The notes beneath the pieces are model-generated. The model ran no database searches and was not told the DNA's origin. It saw only the letters and a list, made by a program, of their open reading frames with translations. A stretch of DNA of 32,000 nt, taken from positions 1,710,001-1,742,000 of the forward strand of contig NC_014833.1 of the NCBI RefSeq assembly GCF_000179635.2, given 5' to 3'. Source of the stretch: Ruminococcus albus 7 = DSM 20455. Lineage in GTDB: Bacteria; Bacillota; Clostridia; Oscillospirales; Ruminococcaceae. Every line of letters starts with the position of its first letter. Positions within the stretch are counted from its first letter, which is position 1. Both the position numbers and the translations under genes were made by a program. Below, piece after piece: positions 9,946 to 27,923 of the stretch.

Positions 9946-11688
9946 TCATACTACTACGAATCTGTTCTTGCCGCCGCGCTTTGCATCGTAAAGCGCTGAA
10001 TCAACACGGAAGAGAAGTTCATCGAGTGTATCGTCATCCAGTGCTTCGGTAACTCCAACAGATATAGTTCGCTGTCCCGCAAGAGGGAATTCTATATCAT
10101 TGAAATAATTTACCATTTCCTTAGCTGCAATTATAGCATCATTTACGCCTACAGGAAGCAATACCATGAATTCCTCACCGCCCCAGCGTCCTGCGGAGGC
10201 TATATTGTCGTGTCTTGCAATGCCTTCCTTCAGCATATCTGCAAGTCCTATTATGACGTTGTCACCTTCATTGTGTCCATAGGTATCGTTAACGGATTTG
10301 AAGTTGTCGATATCTATCATTACCAGTGACAGCGGCTTGCCGCTTATGAGTCGTTCGTTTATTCTGTGCTGTATTTCCGCACGGTTGTAAAGCTTCGTAA
10401 GGCTGTCAAGGATCGCGGCTTCTTCCAGCTCACGGAATGCAGCATTGATATAGTTGGCAAGGCGGTTAATAAGCGCCATCTTGCCTGTGAACTCATTTTC
10501 ATCGACTTCAAGGGCTTTTGCAGGTAAATCCTCTGCAAGTCCCTCACGCATACCTACCAGCACCATGGTAACATTGTGCTGATTGACATATTTGCCTGTA
10601 CGCAGAAATTCACCCGAGGTGTAGAATCCTGAGGTCGGCGCGATGTTTCCGAATGGCATGGATTCTTTGGATATCTCTGTATTTCCCCAGAAGCTTCGCC
10701 TTGCAGCGCAGGAAAATATCTGTACGTTCTCGGGTCTGAAATCTCGTATCTTGATACCTTCTTCTCGTACAGATTCCAGTATCGTACCGGGATCACCGTA
10801 AGCAAGCTGAGCAGATACATCTGATTCCATATCAGATGTCATCATCAGCGAACCGTCTTTCAGGCTCTCGGTAGGCGCACGCAGTATATTTATGCCGTGA
10901 TGGTTATAAAAGAACGGAAATTCCAGCGTGTGACTGAAAAATTTATCGTCATTCTTTATATTGAGATATTTGTGGTATACATCGTAAGCGGGAGCACCGT
11001 CAAGCTCATACAGCCTGCTGCCCTCTGACTTGGTTACATGGAATACCTTTCCAAGAGGTTTCCATCCGGTAACATAGGTGGATATGATATCAAGATCTTC
11101 TCCGCCAAGCAGCCAGAATACTACACTTCCTTCGGATATGCCTCCGTTCTTTGAAAATACGCAGGCATGATGATCGTTTACATCCGCTGCAAAAGCACCG
11201 CCTCCGAATATCTGTATATCTGGCTTAGCCTGACTCAGCTTTTCGCAGAAGCCCGTCATAGACATACCGCGTATAGTCGTTAACAGTTCCACCGCCTTGA
11301 CCCAGGGATTCCTGTCTATCATATCAAGCAGGTCATCAGTGACCGCTTCATAGGTCTCAGCAGAAAGGTCATACTGCTTTATTATCATATTTGTGGAAGG
11401 AAATTCAAAAACAGTGCATATCAGGCTAATCTCTTCGCCCGAATATTCACCGCCGATGATATTGCCGTTTGTTGAGCATCCGAAGTATTCAGCATTCGGC
11501 AGTTCTCTGCTGACAATGTCACATACGTTTTTAATTTTTTCTACATCGTTGTTCTCCGAATATATCTGGAATACGATATGGGAGTATACACTTGAATCAC
11601 ACCAGAGCCTTATTTTTGTAAGTTCATTCTTGAGTGTAAAATCAGTGTGATAGTCAAACTGGAATTGTCTCAATATTATCGCCTCCAC
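9946..11688 (-). CDS. FIST-domain sensor fused to a GGDEF diguanylate cyclase
   Basis: FIST_N/C signatures are YFGCSTNGNIIGGE, IQIFGGGA and SGFYTSGEF. The GGDEF domain has an intact active site RWGGEEF and no canonical RxxD I-site 5 residues upstream. The longest ORF starts with GTG at 11688 without an SD. An in-frame TTG at 11673 lies 8 nt after GGAGG and is the more likely start. Confidence 0.88.
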   Translation of the reverse strand: MEAIILRQFQFDYHTDFTLKNELTKIRLWCDSSVYSHIVFQIYSENNDVEKIKNVCDIVSRELPNAEYFGCSTNGNIIGGEYSGEEISLICTVFEFPSTNMIIKQYDLSAETYEAVTDDLLDMIDRNPWVKAVELLTTIRGMSMTGFCEKLSQAKPDIQIFGGGAFAADVNDHHACVFSKNGGISEGSVVFWLLGGEDLDIISTYVTGWKPLGKVFHVTKSEGSRLYELDGAPAYDVYHKYLNIKNDDKFFSHTLEFPFFYNHHGINILRAPTESLKDGSLMMTSDMESDVSAQLAYGDPGTILESVREEGIKIRDFRPENVQIFSCAARRSFWGNTEISKESMPFGNIAPTSGFYTSGEFLRTGKYVNQHNVTMVLVGMREGLAEDLPAKALEVDENEFTGKMALINRLANYINAAFRELEEAAILDSLTKLYNRAEIQHRINERLISGKPLSLVMIDIDNFKSVNDTYGHNEGDNVIIGLADMLKEGIARHDNIASAGRWGGEEFMVLLPVGVNDAIIAAKEMVNYFNDIEFPLAGQRTISVGVTEALDDDTLDELLFRVDSALYDAKRGGKNRFVVV

Positions 11689-14988: not shown

Positions 14989-15780
14989 TTATTCTTTTCC
15001 TTCCCAGCTCATCCTGAAATAATTCTCACGGAACTGTTTTGGGGTAAGACCCGTGTGCTTGCGGAAGCAGGCGATGAAATGGCTGTGGGAGCTGAAATTC
15101 AGGAAATTGCCGATGTCAAGCGGAGCATACTCTGAAAATTTCAGCATATTCTCAGCAGCCTGTATGCGCCTTGACATTATGAACTCCGATATAGTCACAC
15201 CTACCTCCTGCTTGAAAAGCTTGGATAGATACTGTGGAGTCAGACCCAGCTTGTCGGCTATCTCCTGTACACGTATGCCATTGTAGATGTTGTCATAGAT
15301 TATGTCAAGACACATAAGTACGTGCTTTGAGTAAGCGTTGCCCGAATTGATCTTCTGCATACGCTTTGCATACTCTATAAATACCTCACGGTGGATATCC
15401 TCAAGCTGTTCAACAGAGGTAGCAACATCCAGTCGATTAATGAAAATATCACTTATAGTATAGCTTGTTTCGGTAGGCAGACCCTTCTCTATGCAGAACC
15501 TGGCTATAAGCGCGATTGTGATGGTCAGATGATACTTGACATTTCTCACAGGATCATCGCTGAGTTTACCGTAGCCCTCAACAGCCAGCGGAGTGTAAAG
15601 ATCTTTTACCCGCTCAATATTGCCTGCTGCAACTGCTGAATAAAACTCAAGTTCTTTTTCATACGGCGAATGAGTTTCGCCGGTCTCACGCTGTATAAAT
15701 TCGCGTTGTGAAAGTTCTTTGTTGATGCCCACGAACAGCACCTCCTTCACAGAAGTCTGTTTTATAGTATCATACCACAT
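14989..15780 (-). CDS. AraC-family transcriptional regulator
   Basis: C-terminal double HTH (VQEIADKLGLTPQYLSKLFK ... FSSHSHFIACFRKHTGLTPKQFR). RBS AAGGAGA lies 5 nt upstream. A 7-bp palindrome AAGTCAG-N7-CTGACTT (15802-15822) sits just upstream of the RBS. Confidence 0.88.
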   Translation of the reverse strand: MWYDTIKQTSVKEVLFVGINKELSQREFIQRETGETHSPYEKELEFYSAVAAGNIERVKDLYTPLAVEGYGKLSDDPVRNVKYHLTITIALIARFCIEKGLPTETSYTISDIFINRLDVATSVEQLEDIHREVFIEYAKRMQKINSGNAYSKHVLMCLDIIYDNIYNGIRVQEIADKLGLTPQYLSKLFKQEVGVTISEFIMSRRIQAAENMLKFSEYAPLDIGNFLNFSSHSHFIACFRKHTGLTPKQFRENYFRMSWEGKE

Positions 15781-15935
15781 TTTTGTCTCCTTGTCAAAGT
15801 GAAGTCAGTTGTTAGCTGACTTTATACGGCCTGTTTTTTTGTTATATTACACAAAATAAAGGTGTAAAAATGCTTGATAAATAAAAATATACTGTGCAAT
15901 ATGACGAAAAATTATTGAATTCAGATCCGCTTAAC

Positions 15936-15966
15936 CAAAACGGCAGGCCATTGTTCAGCCTGCCGT
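15936..15966 (-). terminator. Intrinsic terminator of the solute-binding protein gene
   Basis: On the minus strand: ACGGCAGGC-loop-GCCTGCCGT followed by TTTTGG. Confidence 0.65.
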
Positions 15967-16014
15967 CTTGAAAAACCGGAATATAAAAATGAAGGATATT
16001 AAAGCAAGATCATA

Positions 16015-17457
16015 TTATTCCTCAGTCTTTTCCTGAGCCTCTTTTATCAGATAGTCGAGAGCCTTTTCGTTCTCTGCTACAGTAGAGGTCCAGGTATGGG
16101 ACTCGGCAGGGTTCATAGAATTCTTGATTATATTATCAGTCAGATTTGACAGATCACTGGAAACGCCCTGTGCAAACTCAAATACAGGATGCTCAGCTGC
16201 TTTTGCATAGATCTCATCGCGCATCTGGAGCATTTCATCTGTCCAGCCGTAATCTTTCTTATATTGATCAAGTGTGATCTGGTGAGCTTCTTCGTCTATT
16301 TCTGCATATCTTGTGCAGTCGAGCCAAGCAGCAACACCCTCAGGATTCTTAGCACCCTTGGCGATGCAGAATCCGTGGATCCTTGAAGGAACGTACATAT
16401 TGTCTGAATCCTTAGCACAAGGAACAGGAACGAACATTACTTCACCTGCAGCAAGATCACCGTAAGGAGCTGTTACGCTGGGAGCATCTTCGATAGCCCA
16501 CAGACCTATGGGATAGAACAGTGTATCGCCTGATGCTATACCTGTACCGAATACGTCGCCTCTTACCTTCCACTCATGCAGATGTTTGGGGTATACAACG
16601 TTGTTCTTCTGGAGCTCATACATCATGTTCTGTGCTTTGGCGAGCTCAGGAGTATTTATGTTGTTTACGATGTTGCCATTCTCCATACCTACAAGAGGTT
16701 TACCGGAGGATTCAGTGAGTGCATTCTCGTAATACCAGCCGTCCATAGCCCATTTATCAGCTTCGGCGTCTGTAAAGTCTACGCACATCTCGGAAAGCTT
16801 GTCCCAGTTCCATTCGCCCTTGTAGTAAAGTTCGGCGGGATCCTCATAACCGTTGTCTTCCATAACAGTTTTATTGTATATCCAGATATAACTTGGATCA
16901 ACACGGGAAACGGCTACATAGTGTTTTCCCTTGTACATAAACTGATCGTTAGCATTCTTCATCTGGCTCCACAGCGGATCATCGAAATTGATATAATCAT
17001 CAATAGGCTCGATCATGTTCTTTATGGCGCCCTTGGGGAATACGTCCATATCGTCAGCACCGATGAAATCGGGTGAATTGCCTGCCATGATAGAATTTGC
17101 GAGATCGTCGAACTTAGTTTCCCATGTTGTCTGTCTGTAATTTATCTTGCCGTTATACTTGGTCTGGAACAGAGCAAGGTCAACACCGATGTCCTTATCT
17201 GCTGAAGCAGTCGGGTTGATATCATAGAATGAGAACCATACGATCTCATTGTTTTCCAGTTCTCTGACATTTTCCATGCTGTCAGCAAGTCTTGAAACAA
17301 CATCCTGCTGATCTTCTTCCAGCTTTTTTTCAGGCATCGAAGATGCGTTGTTGCCGTTTTTGTCTGAATCGCCGTTATTGCCTGAGCCGCACGCTGTTAC
17401 GCCTATAGTGAGAGCCAGTGCAAGCAGTGCTGCTGCTGTGAGTTTTAATTTTCTCAT
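16015..17457 (-). CDS. ABC-type sugar/oligosaccharide solute-binding lipoprotein (family 1), with no adjacent permease genes
   Basis: Lipobox GVTACGSG. The 480-aa size and Trp/Tyr/Asp-rich composition are typical of carbohydrate SBPs. RBS AGGAGGG is present. The gene starts 37 nt after the upstream gene's stop. Confidence 0.85.
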   Translation of the reverse strand: MRKLKLTAAALLALALTIGVTACGSGNNGDSDKNGNNASSMPEKKLEEDQQDVVSRLADSMENVRELENNEIVWFSFYDINPTASADKDIGVDLALFQTKYNGKINYRQTTWETKFDDLANSIMAGNSPDFIGADDMDVFPKGAIKNMIEPIDDYINFDDPLWSQMKNANDQFMYKGKHYVAVSRVDPSYIWIYNKTVMEDNGYEDPAELYYKGEWNWDKLSEMCVDFTDAEADKWAMDGWYYENALTESSGKPLVGMENGNIVNNINTPELAKAQNMMYELQKNNVVYPKHLHEWKVRGDVFGTGIASGDTLFYPIGLWAIEDAPSVTAPYGDLAAGEVMFVPVPCAKDSDNMYVPSRIHGFCIAKGAKNPEGVAAWLDCTRYAEIDEEAHQITLDQYKKDYGWTDEMLQMRDEIYAKAAEHPVFEFAQGVSSDLSNLTDNIIKNSMNPAESHTWTSTVAENEKALDYLIKEAQEKTEE

Positions 17458-17494
17458 GAATATCCCTCCTGATTACCCTATAGTTACGATATTA

Positions 17495-18346
17495 TCAGTG
17501 CTTCTTCTTTGCAACTATCGCACCTGCAGCCGCAACAGACATCATACCAAGTACTGCACCTGTTGCCGATCCTGTGTTGGTGTTTGAGTTATTTAATGTA
17601 TTGGAAACTGCTGAAGATGCAGATGAGGTACTGTCAGTATTGCTTGACTTTGATTCAGCTTTGCTTTCCTTCTTGGAGTCTTCCTTGCTTTCGACCTTTT
17701 TGTTATCACCTGCAGCATCAGGTGCGCCGAAATCTATTGTAAAATACAGTGTACCGCCGTTGAAAGCACCTTCCTCATCCCAGCCTGCAACTTCGGGGTT
17801 TGCGGTCAGCAGCACTTCCTGAGTATCCTTATCGACTTTGTCAGTAGGACGGATGTGGAATCTTATATCGCCCTCGGCATCACGCGGCATCTCTGTGATA
17901 TTCATCATATCGTTGAATACTGTTTCAGTGCCGTCCTCAGCAACGAATTTAGCCTCAGTAACGCTCAGCTCGATTGGATAAGTGGAATCGTTTTCGAGAC
18001 CTGCAGCTTTTATTGCCTTGTCGAGATTGCATATCATAACGCCCATTTCACCAAGTGAGCCTTTGTTGGATATGGTCTTGTCTGCCAGAATGGGGCTGAT
18101 CTTGTATTCAACGGATATCTTGCCCTCAGCATCGATCCCGAACCATTCGCTCTGGTTCCAGGACCACTTACCGTCGTTGTTCATGAAGAATCCCATAGCA
18201 CCTACGCCGTACCACAGATCGTTCTTTGCTGCATCAGTATCACTGGGAGCACAGATATCAGAGAGCTTTGTTGCGGATACTGTAATAGTCATAGCTGCTG
18301 CGATAAATGCTGCGGAAAAACCCGCAAAAATTCTTTTAGCTTTCAT
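17495..18346 (-). CDS. Anchored surface protein of unknown function (possible glycan-binding beta-sandwich)
   Basis: Signal peptide, then an aromatic-rich roughly 200-aa domain and a Lys/Ser/Glu linker. The C-terminus reads NTNTG-hydrophobic-KKKH. RBS GGAGG is present. Confidence 0.75.
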   Translation of the reverse strand: MKAKRIFAGFSAAFIAAAMTITVSATKLSDICAPSDTDAAKNDLWYGVGAMGFFMNNDGKWSWNQSEWFGIDAEGKISVEYKISPILADKTISNKGSLGEMGVMICNLDKAIKAAGLENDSTYPIELSVTEAKFVAEDGTETVFNDMMNITEMPRDAEGDIRFHIRPTDKVDKDTQEVLLTANPEVAGWDEEGAFNGGTLYFTIDFGAPDAAGDNKKVESKEDSKKESKAESKSSNTDSTSSASSAVSNTLNNSNTNTGSATGAVLGMMSVAAAGAIVAKKKH

Positions 18347-18574
18347 GTTCTATTCCTCCGTTATTATTTCATACAGGACGTTCCTCGTCCCTTTCCTGAC
18401 AATGATTATATCTCAAAAATTGATTTTTTTATATAAAAAACGTAACTTAAATATTCAAATAATAATATAACCTTTGTTCATGCTCTCTAAATTTCAGTTT
18501 TCAATACCCTCTTAATATGGCAAAGTGTACTTAAGCTCAACTTATCTAATTAAAAATTTCTCTCTATAAAGATG

Positions 18575-20374
18575 TTATTTTTTCTTCTTTGCACGGAATA
18601 CACCGAATGCTGCGCCGAGCAAAGCAGCGCCTGCTATACCGACTGAAACGGCAGTGGTCTTTCTTTTGCTGCTGTTTTTCTTTTTGCCCTCAGTTTCTGA
18701 GGATTTCTGTTCTTTGGCATCTGCGGCATTATTTTTTGGTATGCTTTCCTTATCCTTGGCTATCACCAGCAGGGATACAGTTTCTGGTTCCATATCATAT
18801 ATAATAGTATTGTCAGATACCTGAACTGCGTTATTGCTGTCTGTCATATCAAATACCTGCGGCGCGAAATTATTAAGCCCGTAAAGGTGGACATAACTAT
18901 ATTCGCCGCCTTTTATCTTGATGTTAGCGGTTGTCTTGTCATTCATGGATTTGTTAGTAACAACAAGTGTAACAACATCGGTGTTGTCACCGTAGGTTGA
19001 AGCATAGGCTGTAGATAAACCGGTGTTGTCAGATACGGTCTGTCTGAGTGTATCACCAAAACGACCACCGTTACCATCGAAATTTGTGAAAAGATCAATG
19101 GCAGCGCACTGATAATCTGCCTGCATGGCAAACAGAGTAGCAAGATATACATCGTTCTCCATGAAAGCGCCAAGAGCGTCAGCTTCGGCTATTGCACCGC
19201 ATATATCGTAGCTTCCGCCGAAATCATATTCGGATATAGCTATCTTTGTTCCGGGATAGTATTTGTCTATGGACTGCTTGACATTAGGCAGCAGCGGCAG
19301 GAAAGTTCCGCCTGTATCGGTTATCCAGCTGTCCTCTTTGTAGGTATCATCCCACAGACTCCTTACCGAATCGAACCTGGCTTGTACACAGCCCTCGTCG
19401 GAATAATGCTTGCATGAGCGTTCTCCACAGGGCCCCTTTGCTTCGGTATAGTAATGTATATCCAGCGCATCCAGCAAACGTGTACCGGCTTCATCCTCTG
19501 CTTTTTTCATGCTGTCAAGATAGTAGTCGATGAACCAGCGGTAATCATCTCTCTCATTTTTTATATCTTTCCAGTCGGGCGCAGAGCATAGATCCACAAA
19601 TGCGCTGTAACCGAAAAGCGCAGGTCCGAAGATCTCTGCATCGGGATCAATTTGTTTTACAGCCTTAGCCATAGTCACATTTTTATCGACGATCTCAGCA
19701 CAGGTGGTCTTCTCGGGATGCATGAGCGCATGGGTCGAATTCCAGAGAGCGGGTTCATTATCCATTGAATACCCGCGTATCCCGCCGTTCTTTGCTGAGC
19801 CGAGGTTTTTTACAAGATAGTTTACGTACTCGTCCATGTACACAGTTCCGTCTGTGAGATCGGGTGTGTCAGCAAAATCGCTTCCCTTTATCAGCTCGAC
19901 TTTGTTCCATCTGTTTGAAGGTGCTTTCTCGCTCTGTGATACTATGCCGTCCATATCAGCAGAAACATATCCCGCAAGCTGTAGGGTTGTCATTGGATAA
20001 GCGTTGTTCTTTTCAGCACAGCGCCGGCTGAGATGTATGGACATAGCGCCGGGTACATCGGCAAGTTCTTTCTCCATGGTCTGCTGGAAGTAATTATCAG
20101 ATGTATGTTCCTTGTCAGAACCTGCGTTTGAAGCGTTTGTTTCCCAGTTGTATGCTGAAGACCTGTTGCCCCCTGCGCGAATGGCAGTCGGCATAACATC
20201 TCCGCCCATTAGTTCTTCATTTATACCATATATATAAGGGGAGATCGTTTTTGTCTCACCCGAAAGGTCAACTGCGATGTCTACAGTATTTCCATCTGCA
20301 CCAGCGCTTACAGCACAGGTGGCGATTATTGCTGCAGCAGCTGCCAGCTCAGCAGTTTTTCTTATCCTTATCAT
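18575..20374 (-). CDS. GH44 endoglucanase/xyloglucanase with a C-terminal membrane anchor
   Basis: GH44 signatures are RAGGNRSSAYNWETNASNAGSD, YSMDNEPALW (acid/base Glu), IAISEYDFGG (nucleophile Glu), YRWFIDYYLD and FLPLLPNV. The tail reads VGIAGAALLGAAFGVF-RAKKKK. No dockerin or recognisable CBM is present. Confidence 0.9.
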   Translation of the reverse strand: MIRIRKTAELAAAAAIIATCAVSAGADGNTVDIAVDLSGETKTISPYIYGINEELMGGDVMPTAIRAGGNRSSAYNWETNASNAGSDKEHTSDNYFQQTMEKELADVPGAMSIHLSRRCAEKNNAYPMTTLQLAGYVSADMDGIVSQSEKAPSNRWNKVELIKGSDFADTPDLTDGTVYMDEYVNYLVKNLGSAKNGGIRGYSMDNEPALWNSTHALMHPEKTTCAEIVDKNVTMAKAVKQIDPDAEIFGPALFGYSAFVDLCSAPDWKDIKNERDDYRWFIDYYLDSMKKAEDEAGTRLLDALDIHYYTEAKGPCGERSCKHYSDEGCVQARFDSVRSLWDDTYKEDSWITDTGGTFLPLLPNVKQSIDKYYPGTKIAISEYDFGGSYDICGAIAEADALGAFMENDVYLATLFAMQADYQCAAIDLFTNFDGNGGRFGDTLRQTVSDNTGLSTAYASTYGDNTDVVTLVVTNKSMNDKTTANIKIKGGEYSYVHLYGLNNFAPQVFDMTDSNNAVQVSDNTIIYDMEPETVSLLVIAKDKESIPKNNAADAKEQKSSETEGKKKNSSKRKTTAVSVGIAGAALLGAAFGVFRAKKKK

Positions 20375-20657: not shown

Positions 20658-20687
20658 TTGAAATGTCACAGTGAATTGTGCTATAAT
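20658..20687 (+). promoter_or_regulatory. Candidate promoter of the two-component operon
   Basis: TTGAAA (20658-20663), 18-nt spacer, TGcTATAAT (-10 at 20682-20687). Confidence 0.5.
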
Positions 20688-20751
20688 TATTTAAAGTAAT
20701 TTTAAGCGGTGCATGGTATGATATACCAAAACATCAAAGGAGCTGTGATAT

Positions 20752-21426
20752 ATGAGACTGCTGCTTGCAGAAGATGAAAAGGAGCTTTCCAATGCTCTGG
20801 TAGCTGTACTGAAACATAATAATTATTCTGTTGATGCTGTGTATAACGGTCTTGATGCTTATGATTATATCATTGGTGCTGAGTATGACGGAATCGTACT
20901 TGATATCATGATGCCGGGACTTGACGGCTTGACTGTGCTTGAACGTATCCGCGAAAAAGGTATACAGACTCCTGTGCTGCTGCTCACAGCAAAGGCTCAG
21001 GTTGAGGACAGGATAGCCGGACTTGATACAGGGGCAGATGATTATCTCACAAAGCCCTTTGCTATGGGTGAACTGTTGGCGCGGATAAGGGCTATGACAA
21101 GGCGCAGGGCTGAATTTTCGCCTAATACGCTGAAAGTCGGAAATGTCACTCTTGACAGAGAAAGGTTTGTCATTTCCACCAAAAACGGTGAGACCAAACT
21201 TGGCAATAAAGAATTCCAGGTATTGGAGATGTTAATGCTCAACCGCAATATCCTTATTTCCACAGAAAGGCTTATGGAGAAGATATGGGGTTTTGATGCT
21301 GAGGCTGAGATAAGCGTGGTGTGGGTGTATATATCCTACATCAGGAAGAAGCTTTCTGCGGTCGGTGCCGATGTGGAGATAAAGGCCAGCCGCGGTGTGG
21401 GATACACGCTGGAGGTAAAGGAATGA
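20752..21426 (+). CDS. OmpR/PhoB-family response regulator
   Basis: The receiver has the expected acidic pocket and phospho-Asp context (LLAEDE, VLDIMMPGLDG, LTAK). The C-terminal winged helix contains VEIKASRGVGY. RBS AAGGAG is present. Confidence 0.92.
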   Translation: MRLLLAEDEKELSNALVAVLKHNNYSVDAVYNGLDAYDYIIGAEYDGIVLDIMMPGLDGLTVLERIREKGIQTPVLLLTAKAQVEDRIAGLDTGADDYLTKPFAMGELLARIRAMTRRRAEFSPNTLKVGNVTLDRERFVISTKNGETKLGNKEFQVLEMLMLNRNILISTERLMEKIWGFDAEAEISVVWVYISYIRKKLSAVGADVEIKASRGVGYTLEVKE

Positions 21427-22724
21427 TAAAAAGACTTCGGCGCAGGTTCATATTGATAGCTGCCTCAAGTGTGATGGCGGTAGAGCTTCTTGTGGTAGGT
21501 CTGATAAATGTCATATATATATCGCAGATAAACAAGCGCGAGTTACAGCTCATGCAGATACTGTGTGACAATGACGGCAGATTTCCCGAATTCGGCAAGC
21601 ACTTTGACCAGAAACCCGACAGTAGGAATGAAAACGTTTCCATACCTCCCCCCGAAAAGAAGTACAGACTTGGTGACCTTGGATTTAAGGTGAATGAAGA
21701 AACACGATATCAGACAAGGTATTTCTATATTCGCTATGATGAGAATATGAATCCTGCTGAGATAAATACGGGTCACGTAGCTGCAGTCACCTCAGGTGAG
21801 GCGCTGGGCTATGCGAAAGAGGTCGGGGATTCCGGCGAAACATCAGGTTTTATGGGCGATTACCGCTTTTCGGTAATTGAAAAAGAAAACGGTAAGCTGT
21901 ACATCTTTTTGGATTGCCGTGAAGATATACGAATGAAGCGTTCTTTCATGCTCATATCTTCGGCTATCTCTCTGGGGGGCTGGCTGCTGGTGTGCCTGCT
22001 CATAATTATATGCTCGCGGGCAGCTGTAAAACCGTTTATCGAGAATTTCGAGAAGCAGAAAATGTTCATCACTGATGCCGGACATGAGATAAAAACTCCT
22101 CTTGCTATAATACAGGCGAATGCAGAGGTCATCGAGATGATAAACGGCACCAGTGAGTGGACTCAGAGTATAACCAACCAGGTCACAAGGCTGAACGGGC
22201 TGACAGCAGATCTGCTGCGGCTGTCGCGTATGGAAGAGGATGGAGTCAGACAAACATTTGCTGAGTTCGATCTCTCTGAAGCCTTTGCAGATATAGCAGG
22301 ACCGTTCAGGACACTTGCAGAGAACAAGGGGCTATCCTTTGATGTCAAAGCTCAGGAGGGTATACGCATAAACGGCGACAGCTCCGCTATCAGACAGCTT
22401 ATATCCATACTTACAGAGAATGCAGTAAAGTATTGCGATGAAGGTGGCTGCATAACTGTTTCATTGGAAAAGACAAGCAGCGGCAGACACGCTTTGATAA
22501 GTACAGAGAATGACTGCGCTGAACCTCCCGAACATCCTGAACGTCTGTTTGACCGCTTTTACAGGGCAGATAAGTCACGCGGACGTGAGGAAGGTGAAGC
22601 TGCATCAGGCTACGGCATAGGACTTTCGGTAGCCAGGGCAGTGGTAATGTCCCACAAAGGCAGGATATCCTGTAAAGCTGAAGACGGCAGGATAGTATTC
22701 ACCGCGAAGCTGCGGTGCCTGTAA
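21423..22724 (+). CDS. Sensor histidine kinase (two TM helices flanking a roughly 150-aa extracytoplasmic domain)
   Basis: The start ATG overlaps the RR stop (ATGA at 21423-21426). H-box is DAGHEIKTPL and the N/G boxes are ENAVKY and SGYGIGLS. The ORF-track start at 21321 lies inside the RR gene and is rejected. Confidence 0.88.
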   Translation: MIKRLRRRFILIAASSVMAVELLVVGLINVIYISQINKRELQLMQILCDNDGRFPEFGKHFDQKPDSRNENVSIPPPEKKYRLGDLGFKVNEETRYQTRYFYIRYDENMNPAEINTGHVAAVTSGEALGYAKEVGDSGETSGFMGDYRFSVIEKENGKLYIFLDCREDIRMKRSFMLISSAISLGGWLLVCLLIIICSRAAVKPFIENFEKQKMFITDAGHEIKTPLAIIQANAEVIEMINGTSEWTQSITNQVTRLNGLTADLLRLSRMEEDGVRQTFAEFDLSEAFADIAGPFRTLAENKGLSFDVKAQEGIRINGDSSAIRQLISILTENAVKYCDEGGCITVSLEKTSSGRHALISTENDCAEPPEHPERLFDRFYRADKSRGREEGEAASGYGIGLSVARAVVMSHKGRISCKAEDGRIVFTAKLRCL

Positions 22725-22837
22725 AAAATGAAATAATATATTTCAGATAACTTACACATACGGTTAAGCTTCAATTAAGGTTGATAGCTTATAATAATAA
22801 CCATAGAAGAAAAACACATGGGAAAGGAATGATTTAC

Positions 22838-23602
22838 ATGGGTGCTGTACAGGAGATTTTCAAGAGGGTCGAAAAAAAGTACATAGTTACTGATGAACAG
22901 CAGGAAGAACTTGTACGTGTTATGGCAGGTAAAGCTGCTGCAGATAATTACGGGCTCACAACTATCTGCAACATATACTACGACACTCCGGATCATCAGC
23001 TGATAAGGACTTCTATGGAGAAGCCTGTTTATAAGGAAAAGCTGCGCATACGCAGCTACGGCGTGCCCGATAAGGACAGCAAGGTGTTCGTGGAGCTGAA
23101 GAAGAAGTACAAAGGTGTAGTCTATAAGAGGCGTGTTGATATGTCGCTGATAGATTCCTATGAATTTGTAAACTTCGGTGTTAACCCCGGAAAGAATCCT
23201 CAGATCGAGAAGGAGATAGCGTATTTTCTTAAATACTACCGCGATATAGGCCCCGCGATGTATCTCAGCTACGACAGGATCGCTTATGCAGGTACTGATA
23301 ATCCCGACCTGCGTATCACCTTTGACGGCAACATCACCTACCGCGAGGAGGAAACAAGGCTTGAAAAAGGGGTGTGGGGCGATAAGCTTCTTGATCCGCA
23401 CACAAGGATCATGGAGATAAAGATCCCCGGCGCTATGCCTCTGTGGCTCAGCTTTTTGCTTGATCGTATGAAAATCTATCCGGCAAGCTTTTCAAAATAC
23501 GGAGAGGCATTTAAAAGGGTCTTCAGTGAAGCCCTTGATCCCAACGAATACTTAAAGCTTGGCGGGACGAAAAGTAAAGGAAAGGTGAATGATTGTGCTT
23601 AA
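22838..23602 (+). CDS. VTC-domain protein (polyphosphate-polymerase-like triphosphate tunnel / CYTH-like fold)
   Basis: Charged beta-strand motifs FKRVEKKYIV, KLRIRSY, VFVELKKKYKGVVYKRR and IMEIKIP are present. The start is set at ATG 22838, 8-9 nt after GGAAAGGA. 254 aa. Confidence 0.78.
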   Translation: MGAVQEIFKRVEKKYIVTDEQQEELVRVMAGKAAADNYGLTTICNIYYDTPDHQLIRTSMEKPVYKEKLRIRSYGVPDKDSKVFVELKKKYKGVVYKRRVDMSLIDSYEFVNFGVNPGKNPQIEKEIAYFLKYYRDIGPAMYLSYDRIAYAGTDNPDLRITFDGNITYREEETRLEKGVWGDKLLDPHTRIMEIKIPGAMPLWLSFLLDRMKIYPASFSKYGEAFKRVFSEALDPNEYLKLGGTKSKGKVNDCA

Positions 23603-24293
23603 TGAGATCTATATGAATGCGGCGGACCTTACGTCCGGTTTAGGAGCGTCAGCTGTTACTACCAAAACTTTTGCTGTATGCTCACTGGTTTCCCTTTTGG
23701 TAGGAGCAGTTATAGCAGTTGCTTTCTGCTTCAGACAGCATAAGAGCAAGAGCTTCTTTACTACCCTTGCGCTGCTGCCGCTCATCGTGCAGGTTATAAT
23801 AATGATGGTCAACGGCAATCTTGGAACAGGCGTTGCGGTAGCAGGTGCCTTCAGTCTTGTAAGATTCCGTTCGATGCAGGGAAATGCCAAGGATATACTT
23901 GCCATATTTATGGCTATGGCAGTTGGCATCGCCACCGGTACCGATAATCTTAAACTTGCGATAATATTCACTCTTGTGGTATGTGCAGTGAACATTGGAT
24001 ATCTTGTACTTCCTCTGGGAATGGATGACAACAGCGACAAGGTGCTGACCATCACTATCCCCGAAAGTCTTGATTACAGCGATGTATTTGACGATATCTT
24101 CAGAAAGTTCACTGTAAAGGCAGACCTTGTACAGGTAAAGACAACCAATATGGGCAGCCTTTTCAAACTGAAATATGATATCACGCTGAAAAAAGGTGTA
24201 AGCGAAAAAGCTTTCATAGACGAACTCAGAGTCCGTAACGGCAATCTTGAGATACTCTGCTGCAGAAGAATGCCTGAAACATCACAGCTCTGA
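23589..24293 (+). CDS. DUF4956-like integral membrane protein (4-5 TM helices plus soluble C-terminal domain)
   Basis: It overlaps the VTC gene by 14 nt. The N-terminal 140 aa are hydrophobic, and the C-terminal roughly 90 aa are charged (VLTITIPESLDYSDVFDDIF...). Confidence 0.72.
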   Translation: MIVLNEIYMNAADLTSGLGASAVTTKTFAVCSLVSLLVGAVIAVAFCFRQHKSKSFFTTLALLPLIVQVIIMMVNGNLGTGVAVAGAFSLVRFRSMQGNAKDILAIFMAMAVGIATGTDNLKLAIIFTLVVCAVNIGYLVLPLGMDDNSDKVLTITIPESLDYSDVFDDIFRKFTVKADLVQVKTTNMGSLFKLKYDITLKKGVSEKAFIDELRVRNGNLEILCCRRMPETSQL

Positions 24294-24302
24294 TAGCTTT
24301 AT

Positions 24303-24344
24303 AATACTCGCCCGAAGCCGATATTTTCGGGTGAGTATTATTTG
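24303..24344 (+). terminator. Strong hairpin (terminator or attenuator) between DUF4956 and the beta-helix lipoprotein gene
   Basis: AATACTCGCCCGAA / TTCGGGTGAGTATT forms a 14-bp stem with one G-U pair and a 9-nt loop. It is followed only by ATTTG. Confidence 0.5.
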
Positions 24345-24396
24345 AATCAAATTTTAAGTTATAACATTTAACCAAATGAAATGGGAGGCGGCATTA

Positions 24397-26478
24397 ATGA
24401 AAATAAATACAATGAAAAGAGCAGCAGCCCTTGCGGCAGCGATAACAGTGCTAGCCATGACAGGCTGTTCGGATTCTAAGAATAATACAAATAAGACATC
24501 AACAGAAGTAAAGACAGCCGTAGTAACATCAACGGAAGCCGCCATTGACGCAGATGATATCGAAGTAGGGTATGAAGAAGATGATGCGGTCAGCGTGTCA
24601 TTTTCGGACAGCGGTATCGAAACGGAAGGCAGCGGGGTAACAGTTGACGGAACTGTGCTTACTATAACTGCTGCAGGAACGTATAAACTTAGCGGTACCT
24701 GCTCAAACGGCAGGATAGTCATAGAGGCAGGCAAGGAGGATAAGGTGAAGATTGTCCTGGACGATCTTGACCTGACCTGCAAGGATAACGCAGTTATCAC
24801 TGCAAGAACTGCAGATAAAGTGTTCCTGCTGCTTGAGAGCGAAACAGTTAACACCCTTGCAGACGCAACGGCTTATAATCTGGCTGCTGATGATAATACC
24901 GATGCTGCAGTATTCGCAAAATGCGACCTTATCATAAACGGTGACGGGACTCTCAATGTGACAGGCAACTACAAACATGGAATAGTTTCTAAAGATGACC
25001 TTGTTATTACGGGAGGCAATATCACTGTTAAGGCAGAATCATCAGGTCTTGTCGGTAAAGACAGCGTAAAAATAAGCGCGGGCAGTATTGATGTGACATC
25101 GGGCAAGGACGGAGTGAAGTCTGATAACTCGGAAGATGAGGGCAAAGGCATCATAAGTATCACAGGCGGTACAATTAAAATAAATGCAGGAGGTGATGGT
25201 ATCTCTGCTGCAAAGGAACTTCAGATAAGCGGCGGAGATTTCAATATCACAACAGGCGGAGGAAGTGTCAACGCTTCGATGAAGTCAGAGGCTATGCCCA
25301 ATGGTGACCGGATACCAGGATTTGGCGGTAAAGGCGATTTTACACCTCCCGATATGGGCAATTTCGATATGGGTGATCTCGGTACTCCGCCTGATATGGG
25401 TGAACGCCCTGATCGCGGAGACTTTGACCCTTCAAAATTTGATAATAATGGTGAACGTCCCGATTTCGGTGATATGGGCACTCCTCCCGAAATGCCTGAT
25501 GGCGAAACCTTTGAAAAGTCGGAAGAACAGTCAGCAGATTCAGATAATGATACTTCTTCCGGAAATACAGAAACTTCTTCGGATACTGTATCAACTTCAG
25601 CCAAAGCCCTGAAAAGCGGTGGCATCATCATGATCGAAAACGGCACCATTACAATAGATTCCGCAGATGACAGCCTGCACTGCGACGGGTCTGCAAACAT
25701 CAGCGGGGGAAGTATCACAGCATCTTCCGGTGATGACGGTATCCATGTCGGGGGTGATCTGATAATAGACGGCGGTGATGTGACTATCACAAAGAGCTAT
25801 GAGGGCATAGAGGGTATGACCGTTACCGTATCAGGCGGTACTATAAATGTTACCGCAAATGACGATGGCATAAACTGTGCAGGCGGTAGTGATACAGGTT
25901 CATCCGATCGCATGGGCAGGGATCAGTTCGCAGCACAGGAGGGAGTTTACCTTAAAATAAGCGGAGGTACAGTAAACGTTGATGCCGGAGGAGATGGACT
26001 TGATTCAAACGGAGATCTGTATATCGAGGGCGGAATGATAACTGTGAGCGGCCCTGAGAACAGCGGTAACGGGTCTATAGACCACAATGGTTCAGCAAGT
26101 ATAACAGGCGGAACGATAATAGCTGCAGGAGCTGTGGGCATGGAAGAAATGTTCGACGAAGAGGGCACTACTCAGTGCGCAGTCCTCCACGATTTCACAA
26201 AGAGCTTCTCAGCCGATACCGAATTCACCGTCACCGATAAGGACGGTAATACCATACTTTCATTCACTGATCCCAAGACGTGGCAGGGCGTGATATTCTC
26301 ATCTCCCGACCTTAAACAGGGTGAAACATATACAGTTTCAGCAGGCGGCGAAAGCGCCGAGATCACCATAGACGGGGTTATAACCTCAAACAGTACCGGT
26401 GGTATGGGCAATATGGGAGGTATGGGCGGACATGGCAGAAACGGCGGACGTTTAGGCACATCTCAAACCATGACATAA
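24397..26478 (+). CDS. Cthe_2159-type carbohydrate-binding parallel beta-helix lipoprotein
   Basis: GGGAGG lies 8 nt before ATG 24397. Lipobox AMTGC. The family-typical strings are VLTITAAGTYKLSGT, VKIVLDDLDL, ADKVFLLL, HGIVSKDDLVITGG, GKDGVKSD and DGISAAKELQISGGDFNITTGGGS. A second beta-helix half is present (DDSLHCDG, GDDGIHVGGDL, YEGIEG, NDDGINCAGG, GGDGLDSNGDLYIEGG). Confidence 0.85.
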   Translation: MKINTMKRAAALAAAITVLAMTGCSDSKNNTNKTSTEVKTAVVTSTEAAIDADDIEVGYEEDDAVSVSFSDSGIETEGSGVTVDGTVLTITAAGTYKLSGTCSNGRIVIEAGKEDKVKIVLDDLDLTCKDNAVITARTADKVFLLLESETVNTLADATAYNLAADDNTDAAVFAKCDLIINGDGTLNVTGNYKHGIVSKDDLVITGGNITVKAESSGLVGKDSVKISAGSIDVTSGKDGVKSDNSEDEGKGIISITGGTIKINAGGDGISAAKELQISGGDFNITTGGGSVNASMKSEAMPNGDRIPGFGGKGDFTPPDMGNFDMGDLGTPPDMGERPDRGDFDPSKFDNNGERPDFGDMGTPPEMPDGETFEKSEEQSADSDNDTSSGNTETSSDTVSTSAKALKSGGIIMIENGTITIDSADDSLHCDGSANISGGSITASSGDDGIHVGGDLIIDGGDVTITKSYEGIEGMTVTVSGGTINVTANDDGINCAGGSDTGSSDRMGRDQFAAQEGVYLKISGGTVNVDAGGDGLDSNGDLYIEGGMITVSGPENSGNGSIDHNGSASITGGTIIAAGAVGMEEMFDEEGTTQCAVLHDFTKSFSADTEFTVTDKDGNTILSFTDPKTWQGVIFSSPDLKQGETYTVSAGGESAEITIDGVITSNSTGGMGNMGGMGGHGRNGGRLGTSQTMT

Positions 26479-26679: not shown

Positions 26680-26708
26680 TTGACATTTGAAGTGTGATAT
26701 GATAAAAT
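26680..26708 (+). promoter_or_regulatory. Sigma-A promoter of the HD-GYP gene
   Basis: TTGACA (26680-26685), 17-nt spacer, TGaTAAAAT (26700-26708). Confidence 0.55.
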
Positions 26709-26783: not shown

Positions 26784-27923
26784 ATGAACGAGAACGAGCT
26801 TCAGAGCAGGCTGCTCCATATAGATAAGATAGGGGTGCGTCTTACAAGGATAATGTGGGCGCTGATACTGGGTTTCGGACTTTCTGCTATACTGAATATG
26901 GCTGCTGCTGCAGGTTCGGTGTTTTATGACCATATGCCTGAAAAAGTCGCTGAGACCTTGTACATGAAGGATTTTCATTTCGGCACTTTCAGTATAGATG
27001 CTTTGAAGGACAGCATCGAGGCTCATCATCTTGCAGGCATCGGGTATCTGATGTATTCACTCTATTCTGCACTTATCGTGATGATACTCAGCTTTTACCG
27101 CAAGCTTATCATAACTGTGGTCAGGGGCGGACAGCCTTTCACCGAAGAAGCGGGTACGATGATGAAAAAGTATTCCTATCTTACACTGTTTTTTATCTTT
27201 TCATCAAATCCGATAGTTACTATACTGCTTTTTATGATACTCAGGCTTTTTGCCGTCATATTTGATTATGGTGCCTATCTGCAGAAAAAAGCGAATGAAA
27301 CCAACCGCATCCAGGAAGAGATGATAATGTCATTTGCGGAAATAACGGAAAACAAATCAGGTCAGACGGGTCAGCATATCAGGCGCGTTTCCGAATATTC
27401 AAAGATCATAGCTGAAGAACTTGGTCTAAAGGATAGTCAGGTCGAGATGATAGGTCTTGCCTCCACGATGCATGATATCGGCAAGCTTATAATACCTGCT
27501 GAGATACTTGACAAGCCGGCCAGACTCAATGATGAAGAATTTGCAACGATAAAGACTCATACTACATACGGTGCAGCACTTCTAAGCAGAGTTGAGGGCG
27601 ACATTATGCAGCTTTCTAAGACTATAGCGCTTGAGCACCATGAGAGGTTCGACGGAAATGGATATCCTCTCGGCAAGCAGGGTAGAGCTATTGCCCCAGA
27701 AAGTCGTATAGTAGCCGTAGCTGATGTTTATGATGCGCTTACCAGCCGCAGAAGCTATAAAAAGCCGTGGGATCCCAAGGATGCCTATGATGAGATAGTA
27801 AAGAATGCAGGCAAGCAGTTTGATATCAATGTTATCGAAGCTTTCAAATCGGGATATGAAAGGATAGAAGAAGCAAGAGAACGCTATGCCGACAAGGATA
27901 CAGTGGAAGATTGTGAATTGTAA
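26784..27923 (+). CDS. HD-GYP domain c-di-GMP phosphodiesterase with an N-terminal four-TM module (DUF2975-like)
   Basis: HDIGK and HHERFDGNGYP motifs are present. The N-terminal 170 aa hold four hydrophobic helices and a GGQPFTEE loop. Confidence 0.86.
   Translation: MNENELQSRLLHIDKIGVRLTRIMWALILGFGLSAILNMAAAAGSVFYDHMPEKVAETLYMKDFHFGTFSIDALKDSIEAHHLAGIGYLMYSLYSALIVMILSFYRKLIITVVRGGQPFTEEAGTMMKKYSYLTLFFIFSSNPIVTILLFMILRLFAVIFDYGAYLQKKANETNRIQEEMIMSFAEITENKSGQTGQHIRRVSEYSKIIAEELGLKDSQVEMIGLASTMHDIGKLIIPAEILDKPARLNDEEFATIKTHTTYGAALLSRVEGDIMQLSKTIALEHHERFDGNGYPLGKQGRAIAPESRIVAVADVYDALTSRRSYKKPWDPKDAYDEIVKNAGKQFDINVIEAFKSGYERIEEARERYADKDTVEDCEL

Follow-up and report, generated by a model that had tools for sequence, protein, structure and literature searches.

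Yeast Vtc4 and the Pel loci of Gram-positive bacteria are among the closest described relatives of the locus considered here. The functional residues of Vtc4 have been listed, and one of them, K458, is present in active Vtc4 and replaced by Ile or Leu in inactive Vtc2/3 (bioRxiv 10.1101/2023.01.27.525886). In the triphosphate tunnel metalloenzyme (TTM) hydrolases, four acidic-patch positions build a hydrolytic second metal site (PMC4641920). A pair of genes encoding a VTC-domain protein and a DUF4956 protein has already been noted in Gram-positive Pel loci (Whitfield 2020, PMC7112168; PMC12345266). In Streptococcus intermedius, deletion of the DUF4956 gene or of cotH changes the Pel level and aggregation, and the VTC-gene mutant has no phenotype; the authors annotate DUF4956 as an MgtC-type TM domain followed by an ACT domain, summarize literature according to which MgtC exerts its effects through protein partners that it binds (F1Fo and PhoR), and state that the cotH/polyP-polymerase/DUF4956 trio is found only inside Pel loci (PMC12345266). 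These published deletions supersede the statement of an earlier note on this DNA that no experimental function was known for the bacterial module. As the DUF4956 mutant is altered and the VTC mutant is not, they fit poorly with an obligate synthase-translocon pair. No biochemistry of any bacterial VTC-domain protein was found in the literature.

In the window (the whole stretch of 32,000 nucleotides from Ruminococcus albus 7 that was analysed), the five genes of the earlier note were all found at the positions given there; they and the other features described below are on the + strand. For the last three of these genes, Pfam returned exactly the families that had been predicted, VTC, DUF4956 and Cthe_2159, and a survey of 80 species genomes found their synteny to be conserved, as had been expected. 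Since this gene arrangement recurs in dozens of species, it is far beyond chance. A GH44 gene, a gene for a dockerin protein and sugar-binding genes are found near the operon. In Ruminococcus bicirculans, the same triad lies in another genomic context, among glycolysis and tRNA-synthetase genes. The VTC-DUF4956 pair is clearly much more widespread than Pel loci. The reading put forward here, with a probability of roughly 0.45, is that of a two-component system (TCS)-inducible envelope operon organized around a bacterial stand-alone polyphosphate (polyP) polymerase of the Vtc4 type, with a proposed export chain. The module is widespread and may constitute a second bacterial polyP route, acting at the cell envelope.

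The central gene (22838..23602) encodes a stand-alone VTC-domain triphosphate tunnel enzyme of 254 aa (Pfam PF09359 VTC, 3.1e-41, spanning 2-234 of the 235 profile positions) that has neither a signal peptide nor an SPX or TM domain. Public gene calls start it at ATG 22829 (257 aa) rather than at 22838, the start chosen by the earlier note; the latter is favoured because an RBS, GGGAAAGGA, lies 9 nt upstream of it. A profile built from 69 diverse relatives matches Vtc4 (3G3Q) at 1e-12, and a Foldseek search with the AF2 model of the ORF (pLDDT 82) retrieves Vtc4 as its top match (7.6e-12, TM 0.68), Vtc4 and Vtc2 being the best structural matches with CYTH hydrolases behind them. All nine triphosphate/Mn residues of Vtc4 are conserved in the protein; among the same 69 relatives, K14, R70, R72, K88, R147, E193 and K220 (K200, R264, R266, K281, R361, E426 and K458 of Vtc4) are each invariant (69/69), S219 (Vtc4 S457) is conserved in 68/69 and Y145 (Vtc4 Y359) is Tyr in 61/69. 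Three of the four acidic-patch positions are basic, as in Vtc4 (R10, K97 and K195), and the remaining one is occupied by an invariant E12, where Vtc4 has Thr and the TTM hydrolases have Glu. The VTC HMM match and the residue alignment, with the tunnel Lys/Arg/Glu intact, bear out the tunnel-enzyme call; the enzyme is of the Vtc4 type. Judging from these residues, the protein is a candidate polyP polymerase, and polymerase chemistry appears reasonably probable.

The next gene (23589..24293) encodes a DUF4956 membrane protein of 234 aa (Pfam PF16316 DUF4956, 1.4e-15). Among the 80 species genomes, a VTC gene is directly followed by a DUF4956 gene of the same orientation in 70 of 75 loci, and the two genes overlap in 53/71 loci (mode -8 nt). 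In R. albus the overlap is of 14 nt, as had been claimed, and the RBS of the DUF4956 ORF, AAGGAAAGG, sits within the C-terminal codons of the VTC ORF; these overlapping genes support the proposed translational coupling. No VTC-DUF4956 fusion was found among the top matches. Five TM helices (N-out) are predicted for the DUF4956 protein, together with a cytoplasmic domain of the ACT/ferredoxin-like type (beta-alpha-beta-beta-alpha-beta); Foldseek with its AF2 model (pLDDT 74.5) gives weak ACT/ferredoxin-like matches and nothing else. Within a cytoplasmic-face motif, R92-F-R94-S95, residues R92, R94 and S95 are invariant in all 71 homologues examined (71/71), and both R92/R94 and the C-terminal domain lie on the cytoplasmic side of the membrane, which is also that of the enzyme. 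Profile alignment with MgtC/SapB by hhalign (probability 81%, E=1.3e-5, against E=0.24 for the reversed control) makes DUF4956 a distant relative of this family, the sole kinship detected for it. To our knowledge, MgtC/SapB proteins do not form channels, the family being known as a regulator and not as a transporter. A Vtc1-like channel split from the VTC enzyme was considered for DUF4956 and rejected in view of its MgtC/SapB-like 5-TM region with a cytoplasmic ACT-like domain, and the idea of the earlier note that the channel logic of VTC is split over two ORFs is abandoned with it. That the enzyme and the DUF4956 protein form a membrane complex is somewhat favoured.

Upstream of this pair, the TCS comprises an OmpR/PhoB-family response regulator of 224 aa (20752..21426; Pfam Response_reg 7.8e-29, Trans_reg_C 6.3e-20), which remains below all NCBIfam equivalog cut-offs (best, RppA, 224 bits versus a cut-off of 250), and a sensor histidine kinase of 433 aa (21423..22724; HisKA 3.2e-11, HATPase_c 2e-15), whose start overlaps the stop of the regulator gene in the ATGA previously reported and read here directly from the letters. 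Two TM segments of the kinase flank an extracytoplasmic domain of ~140 aa that matched no Pfam family and that is homologous in 28 of the 33 VTC-adjacent kinases of other species; a dedicated TCS with this common sensor domain adjoins the VTC module in ~48% of the 80 species genomes. In front of the VTC operon lies a putative promoter that would depend on the RR (22764..22795). Its TTAAG-N6-TTAAG direct repeat (22764-22779) is separated by 10 nt from a -10 box, TATAAT (22790-22795), and the promoter has no good -35 box. Allowing at most one mismatch, the repeat occurs upstream of VTC in 23/34 TCS-linked loci versus 14/979 other genes (Fisher p=3.7e-29); it precedes the RR genes in 11 of 38 related loci (versus 14/979, p=1.3e-10) and is found in none of 72 regions upstream of DUF4956. 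In R. albus, a putative autoregulatory TCS promoter (20691..20722) has the same layout, with a TTAAAG-N5-TTTAAG direct repeat (20691-20706) placed 10 nt before a -10-like TATGAT (20717-20722); further upstream, at 20658-20687, TTGAAA-18-TGnTATAAT is a stronger match to a sigma-70 promoter of the constitutive type. This comparative enrichment suggests that TTAAG-N6-TTAAG is likely an operator of the adjacent TCS. Control by the adjacent TCS, already proposed, is now backed both by the conservation of the sensor domain and by that of the operator in front of VTC, and the VTC operon is quite probably under its direct control.

The DUF4956 gene is followed by a hairpin (24301..24341) with a weak U-tract, whose stem was announced as 14 bp and turns out by folding to be real and of 17 bp (centroid -23.4 kcal/mol; z=-3.3 for a 116-nt region). 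Equivalent hairpins are found in close Ruminococcus relatives (-24.1 in locus L008, -19.2 in L009 and -19.7 in L004, the last with a true T-run). The hairpin is absent outside these close relatives, where the lipoprotein gene is usually near, typically within ~30 nt, a spacing that rests on crude ORF calls. Its probable role is that of a partial terminator or attenuator that keeps lipoprotein expression lower. The last gene (24376/24397..26478) encodes a two-lobed parallel beta-helix lipoprotein of the Cthe_2159 type (Pfam PF14262, 2.5e-90, three stretches) with the lipobox LAMTG/C, whose residues 75-299 match PDB 4PEU at 3.4e-41. The description given of it earlier stands: homology links its two lobes (E=1e-10), which are separated by a Met/Gly/Pro/Asp-rich low-complexity insertion (~residues 293-398), the tail being Gly/Met-rich. 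A lipobox and low-complexity segments are found in 25 of 45 syntenic proteins, that of the window included. The solved member (4PEU) is said, in the original structure paper, to bind Ca2+, cellulose and polygalacturonate, i.e. anionic or cellulosic polysaccharides. A Cthe_2159 gene lies downstream in 37 of the 57 loci with room for it there (~65%), and the lipoprotein is considered an optional accessory because ~35% of loci have none. CotH, claimed to be a frequent associate, is found in none of the 80 closest loci (0/80) and occurs instead in streptococcal, clostridial and bifidobacterial Pel loci.

Combining these data, the following model can be proposed for the operon. The extracytoplasmic sensor domain of the kinase would detect some envelope signal. 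The phosphorylated OmpR-type regulator would then bind the TTAAG-N6-TTAAG repeats, located 10 nt ahead of the -10 boxes, and activate both its own promoter and the VTC promoter, a scheme proposed because the comparative footprint is strong. The VTC enzyme and the DUF4956 protein would be made in coupled amounts; the enzyme, in the cytoplasm, would bind NTP/Mn2+ through its Vtc4-matching residues and polymerise gamma-phosphates into polyP. The invariant Arg residues and the ACT-like domain of DUF4956 seem placed to recruit and regulate the enzyme at the membrane, and DUF4956 might pass the polyP chain outward, which is the weakest step. At the outer face, the lipoprotein would bind, anchor or use the polyanion, or its cations. 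Export of polyP with hand-off to the lipoprotein is, on its own, doubtful.

Among the alternatives, the one that survives best, although rather unlikely, is that polyP is made at the membrane and stays intracellular. In this reading, DUF4956 would be no conduit; it would be an MgtC-like anchor or regulator that senses a metabolite through its ACT domain or adjusts ATP/Pi homeostasis, and the lipoprotein would be co-regulated with the pair while having a separate mechanism, as an envelope-stress or cation-binding protein. The likeness of DUF4956 to MgtC/SapB in sequence and architecture, shared by the S. intermedius annotation, the action of MgtC through protein binding, the dispensability of Cthe_2159, the terminator-like hairpin that sets the lipoprotein gene apart in Ruminococcus and the Met-rich, Cu/cation-binding-like segments of many lipoproteins all agree with it. 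It does not account for the near-constant translational coupling of a cytoplasmic enzyme to a membrane protein, nor for an operon that associates them in most loci with an extracytoplasmic protein and with an envelope-sensing kinase, and the third partner of other clades (CotH-FN3) is likewise secreted. An exopolysaccharide or plant cell-wall module is improbable. In such a module, the VTC/DUF4956 pair would influence how much of a surface polysaccharide is made or what charge it carries, as has been suggested for Pel, and the lipoprotein would be a protein that binds carbohydrate or resembles a lyase, with pectin or cellulose as its target. This reading would suit a cellulolytic Ruminococcus with the above-mentioned GH44, dockerin and sugar-binding genes nearby, the binding reported for the solved Cthe_2159 member and the effect of homologous pairs on Pel level; however, the GH44 surroundings are not conserved, as R. 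bicirculans illustrates, glycosyltransferase or pel genes were neither found in the window nor recurrent in the 80 loci, and an intact polymerase active site would be left without a role. Least probable is a hydrolase or other triphosphate tunnel enzyme (tripolyphosphatase, polyphosphatase, NTPase or cyclase). In its favour, hydrolases and cyclases make up the majority of the characterised TTM/CYTH enzymes of bacteria, CYTH enzymes come next after the VTC proteins in the structural comparison, AtTTM3 has the Vtc4 tunnel centre and only hydrolyses PPPi (PMC4641920), and E12, at the hydrolase Glu-4 position, speaks against a polymerase. Against it, the protein retains a single acidic-patch residue out of four and has the basic polyP-guiding residues of Vtc4 at the three other positions, the equivalent of K458, critical for polymerisation and dispensable for hydrolysis (PMC4641920), is invariant, and Vtc4 is nearer than any CYTH hydrolase by both sequence and structure.

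The preferred reading, an inducible envelope operon around a Vtc4-type enzyme, can finally be set against known systems. The 254-aa protein shares its Pfam family and predicted tunnel fold with the TTM domain of yeast Vtc4 (PDB 3G3Q, 8I6V, 7YTJ), as well as the triphosphate/Mn residues, catalytic K458 and the basic exit path (R196, K294, K428), despite a sequence identity of only ~20%. It differs in standing alone, without SPX or a fused 3-TM domain, in lacking Vtc1/2/3/5 partners, in the invariant Glu that replaces Thr198 and in its apparently transcriptional regulation by a TCS, whereas the yeast complex is regulated by inositol pyrophosphates. The Pel-locus trio (SIR_1594-1592) contains the same VTC-DUF4956 pair, again with a secreted third protein, which is CotH-FN3 there and a Cthe_2159 beta-helix lipoprotein here; the Ruminococcus operon has no pel cluster and possesses a dedicated TCS with its own putative operator. 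DUF4956 resembles MgtC/SapB/YhiD in its architecture, with an ACT-like domain on the cytoplasmic side coming after 4-5 TM helices, and in a collinear profile-profile match over 171 columns that includes the G-rich TM3/TM4 core, but it does not reach the threshold of Pfam MgtC (E about 1), has distinct conserved motifs (NGNLGTGVAV and RFRS) and is encoded by a gene obligately paired with that of the VTC enzyme; we know of no enzyme partner of MgtC. The lipoprotein has the same right-handed parallel beta-helix as Acetivibrio thermocellus Cthe_2159 (PDB 4PEU/4PHB), but it is a duplicated, two-lobed lipoprotein that carries a Met/Gly/Pro/Asp-rich insertion, and its gene shares an operon with that of a polyP-polymerase-like enzyme. 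PPK1 and PPK2 have the same presumed product, polyP from NTP, with an unrelated fold and mechanism, and they lack a dedicated membrane protein, lipoprotein or TCS such as those that accompany the VTC enzyme here.

The earlier note had described five same-strand genes as a candidate system for the synthesis and export of polyphosphate (polyP) or another polyanion, controlled by the adjacent two-component system (TCS); the observation was confirmed and its interpretation was supported in part. The six-frame ORF list and direct reading of the sequence place on the + strand a response regulator (RR) gene (20752–21426; Pfam Response_reg/Trans_reg_C), a histidine kinase (HK) gene (21423–22724; Pfam HisKA/HATPase_c), an ORF of 254 aa with a VTC domain (22838–23602), an ORF of 234 aa belonging to DUF4956 (23589–24293; E=1.4e-15) and a lipoprotein gene of the Cthe_2159 family (24397–26478; 693/700 aa). 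The last three families were returned by Pfam exactly as foreseen. The same reading recovered the ATGA common to the start codon of the HK and the stop codon of the RR, as well as the 14-nt overlap between the VTC and DUF4956 ORFs, the RBS of the latter (AAGGAAAGG) being located inside the last VTC codons. For the three core proteins (VTC, DUF4956 and Cthe_2159), NCBIfam has no model and PADLOC gave no defence-system match. At the end of the VTC ORF (23575–23602), a C-terminal KGKVxxCA sequence that is conserved in the clade coincides with the AAGGAAAGG RBS and the DUF4956 start codon. Residues 237–254 of the VTC protein are disordered in its AF2 model (pLDDT <50), and the conservation of KGKVxxCA is probably a signal for translational coupling rather than for enzyme function.

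The VTC domain (PF09359) covers residues 10–228 of the protein and positions 2–234 of the 235 of the profile (E=3.1e-41, 141.9 bits vs a cut-off of 23); SPX and transmembrane (TM) domains are absent, Pfam detecting the VTC domain only. A single-sequence phmmer search of the PDB retrieved only chance matches to P450 and no Vtc4, and a profile built from just the last 65 residues found nothing but DARPins. When 69 representatives, 38–52% identical to the query, were combined in one profile, it matched the catalytic domain of Vtc4 at 1e-12. The AF2 model (pLDDT 81.9) leads to the same family: the top 13 Foldseek matches in the PDB of this predicted, not solved, structure are Vtc4, Vtc2 and Vtc3 (best 7.6e-12, TMq 0.68), and CYTH hydrolases and cyclases rank after them, at 6e-8 or weaker. 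The predicted fold is thus the beta-tunnel of the triphosphate tunnel metalloenzymes (TTM), closest to that of Vtc4. This VTC family includes 4,518 clusters at 50% identity (E≤1e-3), whose best 150 representatives are all 202–356 aa long, short enough for stand-alone proteins. The window protein has identical copies in 42 metagenomic contigs, its nearest named relative being from R. albus (91%).

All nine equivalents of the Vtc4 tunnel residues sought by alignment are present in the 254-aa ORF. Seven of them do not vary among the 69 relatives: K14 (Vtc4 K200), R70 (R264), R72 (R266), K88 (K281) and R147 (R361), all triphosphate-coordinating, E193 (E426), the Mn ligand, and the catalytic Lys K220 (K458; Lys in 69/69). 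The two other triphosphate-coordinating residues, Y145 (Y359) and S219 (S457), are Tyr in 61/69 and Ser in 68/69 relatives, respectively. Mutagenesis in yeast showed that the residues of this list are needed for polyP synthesis, and K458 is the one residue separating active Vtc4 from inactive Vtc2 and Vtc3, which carry Ile/Leu there (bioRxiv 10.1101/2023.01.27.525886); it counts for polymerisation and not for TTM hydrolysis (PMC4641920). K220 sits in an FSKY motif aligned with FSKF of Vtc4. The E426/K458 region was aligned by scoring the segment 420–467 of Vtc4 against the family HMM, and this C-terminal alignment scores weakly by itself but is collinear with the Pfam and fold matches. In TTM hydrolases, four positions of an acidic patch form a second metal site that activates water (PMC4641920); three of the four are basic in the VTC protein (R10, K97 and K195), as in Vtc4, and the fourth is an invariant Glu (E12), as against Thr198 in Vtc4. 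On these observations, polymerase chemistry is likely for the VTC protein, with a probability of roughly two in three.

The comparison was extended to 80 related loci, one per species genome, from Oscillospiraceae, Lachnospiraceae, Peptococcaceae, Christensenellaceae, Bacilli and a few Actinomycetota and Bacteroidales bins, annotated with our own ORF calls and HMMs. The synteny foreseen for the three genes was found: the gene immediately after VTC, on its strand, is DUF4956 in 70/75 loci, the two overlapping in 53/71 (most commonly by 8 nt). Of the 57 loci whose downstream sequence reaches 2.5 kb or more, 37 contain Cthe_2159, and of the 65 with enough sequence upstream, 31 have a neighbouring TCS. 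R. bicirculans (57% identity) has the VTC-DUF4956-Cthe_2159 triad in an unrelated neighbourhood and without any TCS. A linkage to CotH, which had also been proposed, was not encountered in the 75 annotated loci, and among their 257 unlabelled neighbour ORFs no family occurs in more than four loci, the recurring ones being housekeeping genes.

The membrane partner does not correspond to the channel split off from VTC that had been envisaged. The AlphaFold model of the DUF4956 protein (pLDDT 74.5) has five TM helices followed by a C-terminal beta-alpha-beta-beta-alpha-beta domain; in Foldseek, this domain has weak matches only, to ACT/ferredoxin-like folds, and the TM part has none, and the sequence has no match in the PDB. 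None of these three approaches (Pfam, PDB sequence search and Foldseek) detected any similarity to Vtc1. Pfam MgtC (PF02308) gives weak collinear matches for the four members tested (E=0.5–1.6, below the 31.4-bit cut-off). An hhalign comparison of 71 syntenic DUF4956 sequences with 8 MgtC/SapB sequences gives a probability of 80.7% (E=1.3e-5 over 171 columns), a value that TM compositional bias may inflate, vs E=0.24 for the reversed control. This possible kinship surfaced only with these larger profiles, a comparison of 30 DUF4956 sequences with YhiD alone being insignificant (E=0.29), and the authors of work on Streptococcus intermedius independently describe their DUF4956 orthologue as MgtC-TM plus ACT (PMC12345266). 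The probable distant MgtC/SapB kinship and the ACT-like architecture therefore argue against a detached Vtc1-like channel. Clusters of Lys and Arg occupy loop 1 and the end of TM3, the remaining loops being uncharged; by this distribution the N-terminus lies outside, and the ACT-like domain is cytoplasmic, on the same side as the VTC enzyme. R92, R94 and S95 are invariant across all 71 DUF4956 sequences.

The third protein has the features that had been read from its sequence, i.e. a lipobox, two beta-helix lobes and a Met/Gly/Pro/Asp-rich insertion. Pfam Cthe_2159 (PF14262) matches it in three stretches (2.5e-90), residues 75–299 match the solved structure 4PEU at 3.4e-41 and the two lobes are paralogous (E=1e-10). 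Low-complexity segments rich in Met/Gly/Pro/Asp(His) occur in 25 of the 45 syntenic Cthe_2159 lipoproteins, that of the window included, between the lobes or at the C-terminus; in that of the window they span residues ~293–398 and the last ~30 aa. Examples, some from orthologues of the compared loci L063, L072, L079, L050, L024 and L048, include GGMHGGGMHGGGMHGGG, MPEMPDGT repeats and GGMRGGMDNGMGGG. Copper-resistance proteins have similar Met/His-rich motifs that bind Cu(I) or cations, and by this analogy the module could have a metal or cation role. The hairpin between the DUF4956 and lipoprotein genes (24301–24341; centroid -23.4 kcal/mol) is present, with a stem of 17 bp instead of the 14 bp first reported, but is confined to the Ruminococcus clade and is not a conserved element of the module. 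Outside Ruminococcus, the lipoprotein gene usually lies close behind DUF4956, typically within ~30 nt according to crude ORF calls. In two loci, a DUF4097 toastrack protein replaces Cthe_2159 after DUF4956 (L028:2644–3435 and L081:11421–12326), which suggests that accessory proteins are interchangeable in this position.

The proposed control by the adjacent TCS gained support from both its kinase and its predicted operator. The N-terminal, extracytoplasmic sensor region of the HK (21510–21980, residues ~30–186) has no match in Pfam even at E≤10 and is shared by 28 of 33 VTC-adjacent kinases from many genera. It is therefore an undescribed sensor domain tied to the VTC module, which makes the TCS a dedicated partner of the module, not one that merely happens to lie beside it. 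The HK-VTC intergenic regions carry tandem TT(T)AAG half-sites with an 11-bp periodicity that end ~10 nt before a -10 box. When TTAAG-N6-TTAAG was scored with up to one mismatch from -200 to +60 of each ORF start, it was found upstream of 23/34 VTC genes with an adjacent TCS (Fisher p=3.7e-29 vs all other genes, 14/979), of 11/38 RR genes (p=1.3e-10), of 6/42 VTC genes with no TCS detected nearby (p=8.5e-5) and of 0/72 DUF4956 genes. The window has two putative + strand promoters of identical layout, one for the VTC operon (repeat 22764–22779, 10 nt, TATAAT 22790–22795) and one for the TCS (repeat 20691–20706, 10 nt, TATGAT 20717–20722), both matching the classic arrangement of OmpR/PhoB-type activator sites. 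The TCS itself is of this type, with a receiver and winged-helix RR, a HisKA/HATPase HK and 11-bp direct repeats beside the -10 box. These data support a direct and autoregulated control of the operon by the RR, which would bind the repeats. A third copy with one mismatch lies on the - strand (18530–18545), 184–199 nt upstream of a gene (17495–18346) for a 283-aa secreted, C-terminally anchored protein that stands just downstream of a GH44 gene. By chance alone, the window should contain about 2.5 matches of this kind, and this copy may be meaningless or its gene may be part of the regulon. In a Clostridiales MAG (L016:~10100–10250), tandem repeats of ~17 nt (TAATTTATAGAATCGTA-like) lie in the HK-VTC intergenic region upstream of the TTAAG boxes.

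Directly downstream of the module, a gene for a membrane-anchored HD-GYP-like (HD_5) protein (26784–27923, + strand) was considered as a further component and rejected; it has its own strong sigma-70-like promoter (26680–26708) and adjoins the module only in near relatives and in one opposite-strand case (L048). A DGC/PDE gene is reported in bifidobacterial cotH/VTC/DUF4956 loci (PMC7112168), and by analogy a loose link of the module to c-di-GMP signalling is possible. Upstream, a plant-fibre cluster on the - strand (14989–20374) encodes a GH44, the secreted anchored protein, a sugar-binding lipoprotein and an AraC regulator, with a GH16 on the + strand, and a dockerin-bearing protein is encoded farther upstream (4693–6126, - strand). 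Such genes are in keeping with a cellulosomal Ruminococcus; R. bicirculans does not have them beside the module.

The VTC-DUF4956 pair has already been noted three times in the literature. Genes for a so-called polyP polymerase and DUF4956 lie beside cotH in NELoc-2 of Clostridium perfringens (PMC2879425) and accompany the pel loci of Gram-positive bacteria as accessory genes (PMC7112168). In S. intermedius, a DUF4956 mutant makes more Pel and aggregates less, a CotH mutant makes less Pel and a VTC mutant has no phenotype (PMC12345266). Taken as a whole, the best-supported scheme can be viewed as follows. The TCS would induce the operon, so that a candidate Vtc4-type polymerase would be made in amounts coupled to those of an MgtC-like membrane protein and would work on the inner side of the membrane; most lineages would add a surface beta-helix lipoprotein to the pair. 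That DUF4956 exports the polymer and the lipoprotein captures it is an attractive hypothesis, as the sensor and, in all clades, the third partner are extracytoplasmic and Arg lines the cytoplasmic mouth; the discordant S. intermedius phenotypes count mildly against it. A rival reading keeps polyP inside the cell and makes DUF4956 a regulator. Another gives the module an exopolysaccharide or cell-wall role. A third, that the VTC protein is a hydrolase, is unlikely.

Beyond the TCS-induced operon with its candidate polymerase, the pair could be viewed as a widespread PPK-independent polyP synthase-exporter in which the MgtC-like partner oligomerises into a polyanion conduit with Arg residues around its cytoplasmic mouth, and polyP reaches the Gram-positive cell surface to be used by lineage-specific partners; this wider proposal is tentative and rather unlikely. 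The VTC family has ~4,500 clusters (50% identity) from Bacillota, Actinomycetota and Bacteroidota. The partners would be Cthe_2159 beta-helix lipoproteins, CotH kinases or toastrack proteins, and polyP would serve as a cation/metal sink, an anionic cross-linker of cationic matrix polymers (Pel) or an extracellular phosphoryl donor. In the polyP reviews and papers searched, VTC figures as a eukaryotic invention and polyP synthesis in bacteria is ascribed to PPK1/PPK2, and no biochemical characterisation, enzyme assay or polyP measurement of any bacterial VTC-domain protein was found in this literature. A 2026 preprint on Bacillus cereus, which according to its authors has no VTC4 homologue, describes synthesis of polyP that does not depend on PPK, as well as extracellular polyP whose source is unclear (PMC13484657), so that the question of PPK-independent polyP is live. 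What is new here is the residue-level, synteny and operator evidence on a bacterial VTC module. A large bacterial VTC family that has a complete Vtc4 active site and is linked to a membrane protein, to a surface protein and to a TCS that senses the envelope is a testable candidate for PPK-independent polyP synthesis in gut and rumen Firmicutes, possibly directed to the surface. It would also account for the puzzling accessory genes of the pel biofilm loci of Gram-positive bacteria; the putative operator TTAAG-N6-TTAAG offers a handle for finding the inducing signal. Judged from its sequence, the enzyme is of the Vtc4 type, in a bacterial context outside the VTC complex: the eukaryotic complex (Vtc1/2/3/4/5) has SPX domains and Vtc1-type 3-TM subunits, whereas the 254-aa VTC protein and DUF4956 have neither.
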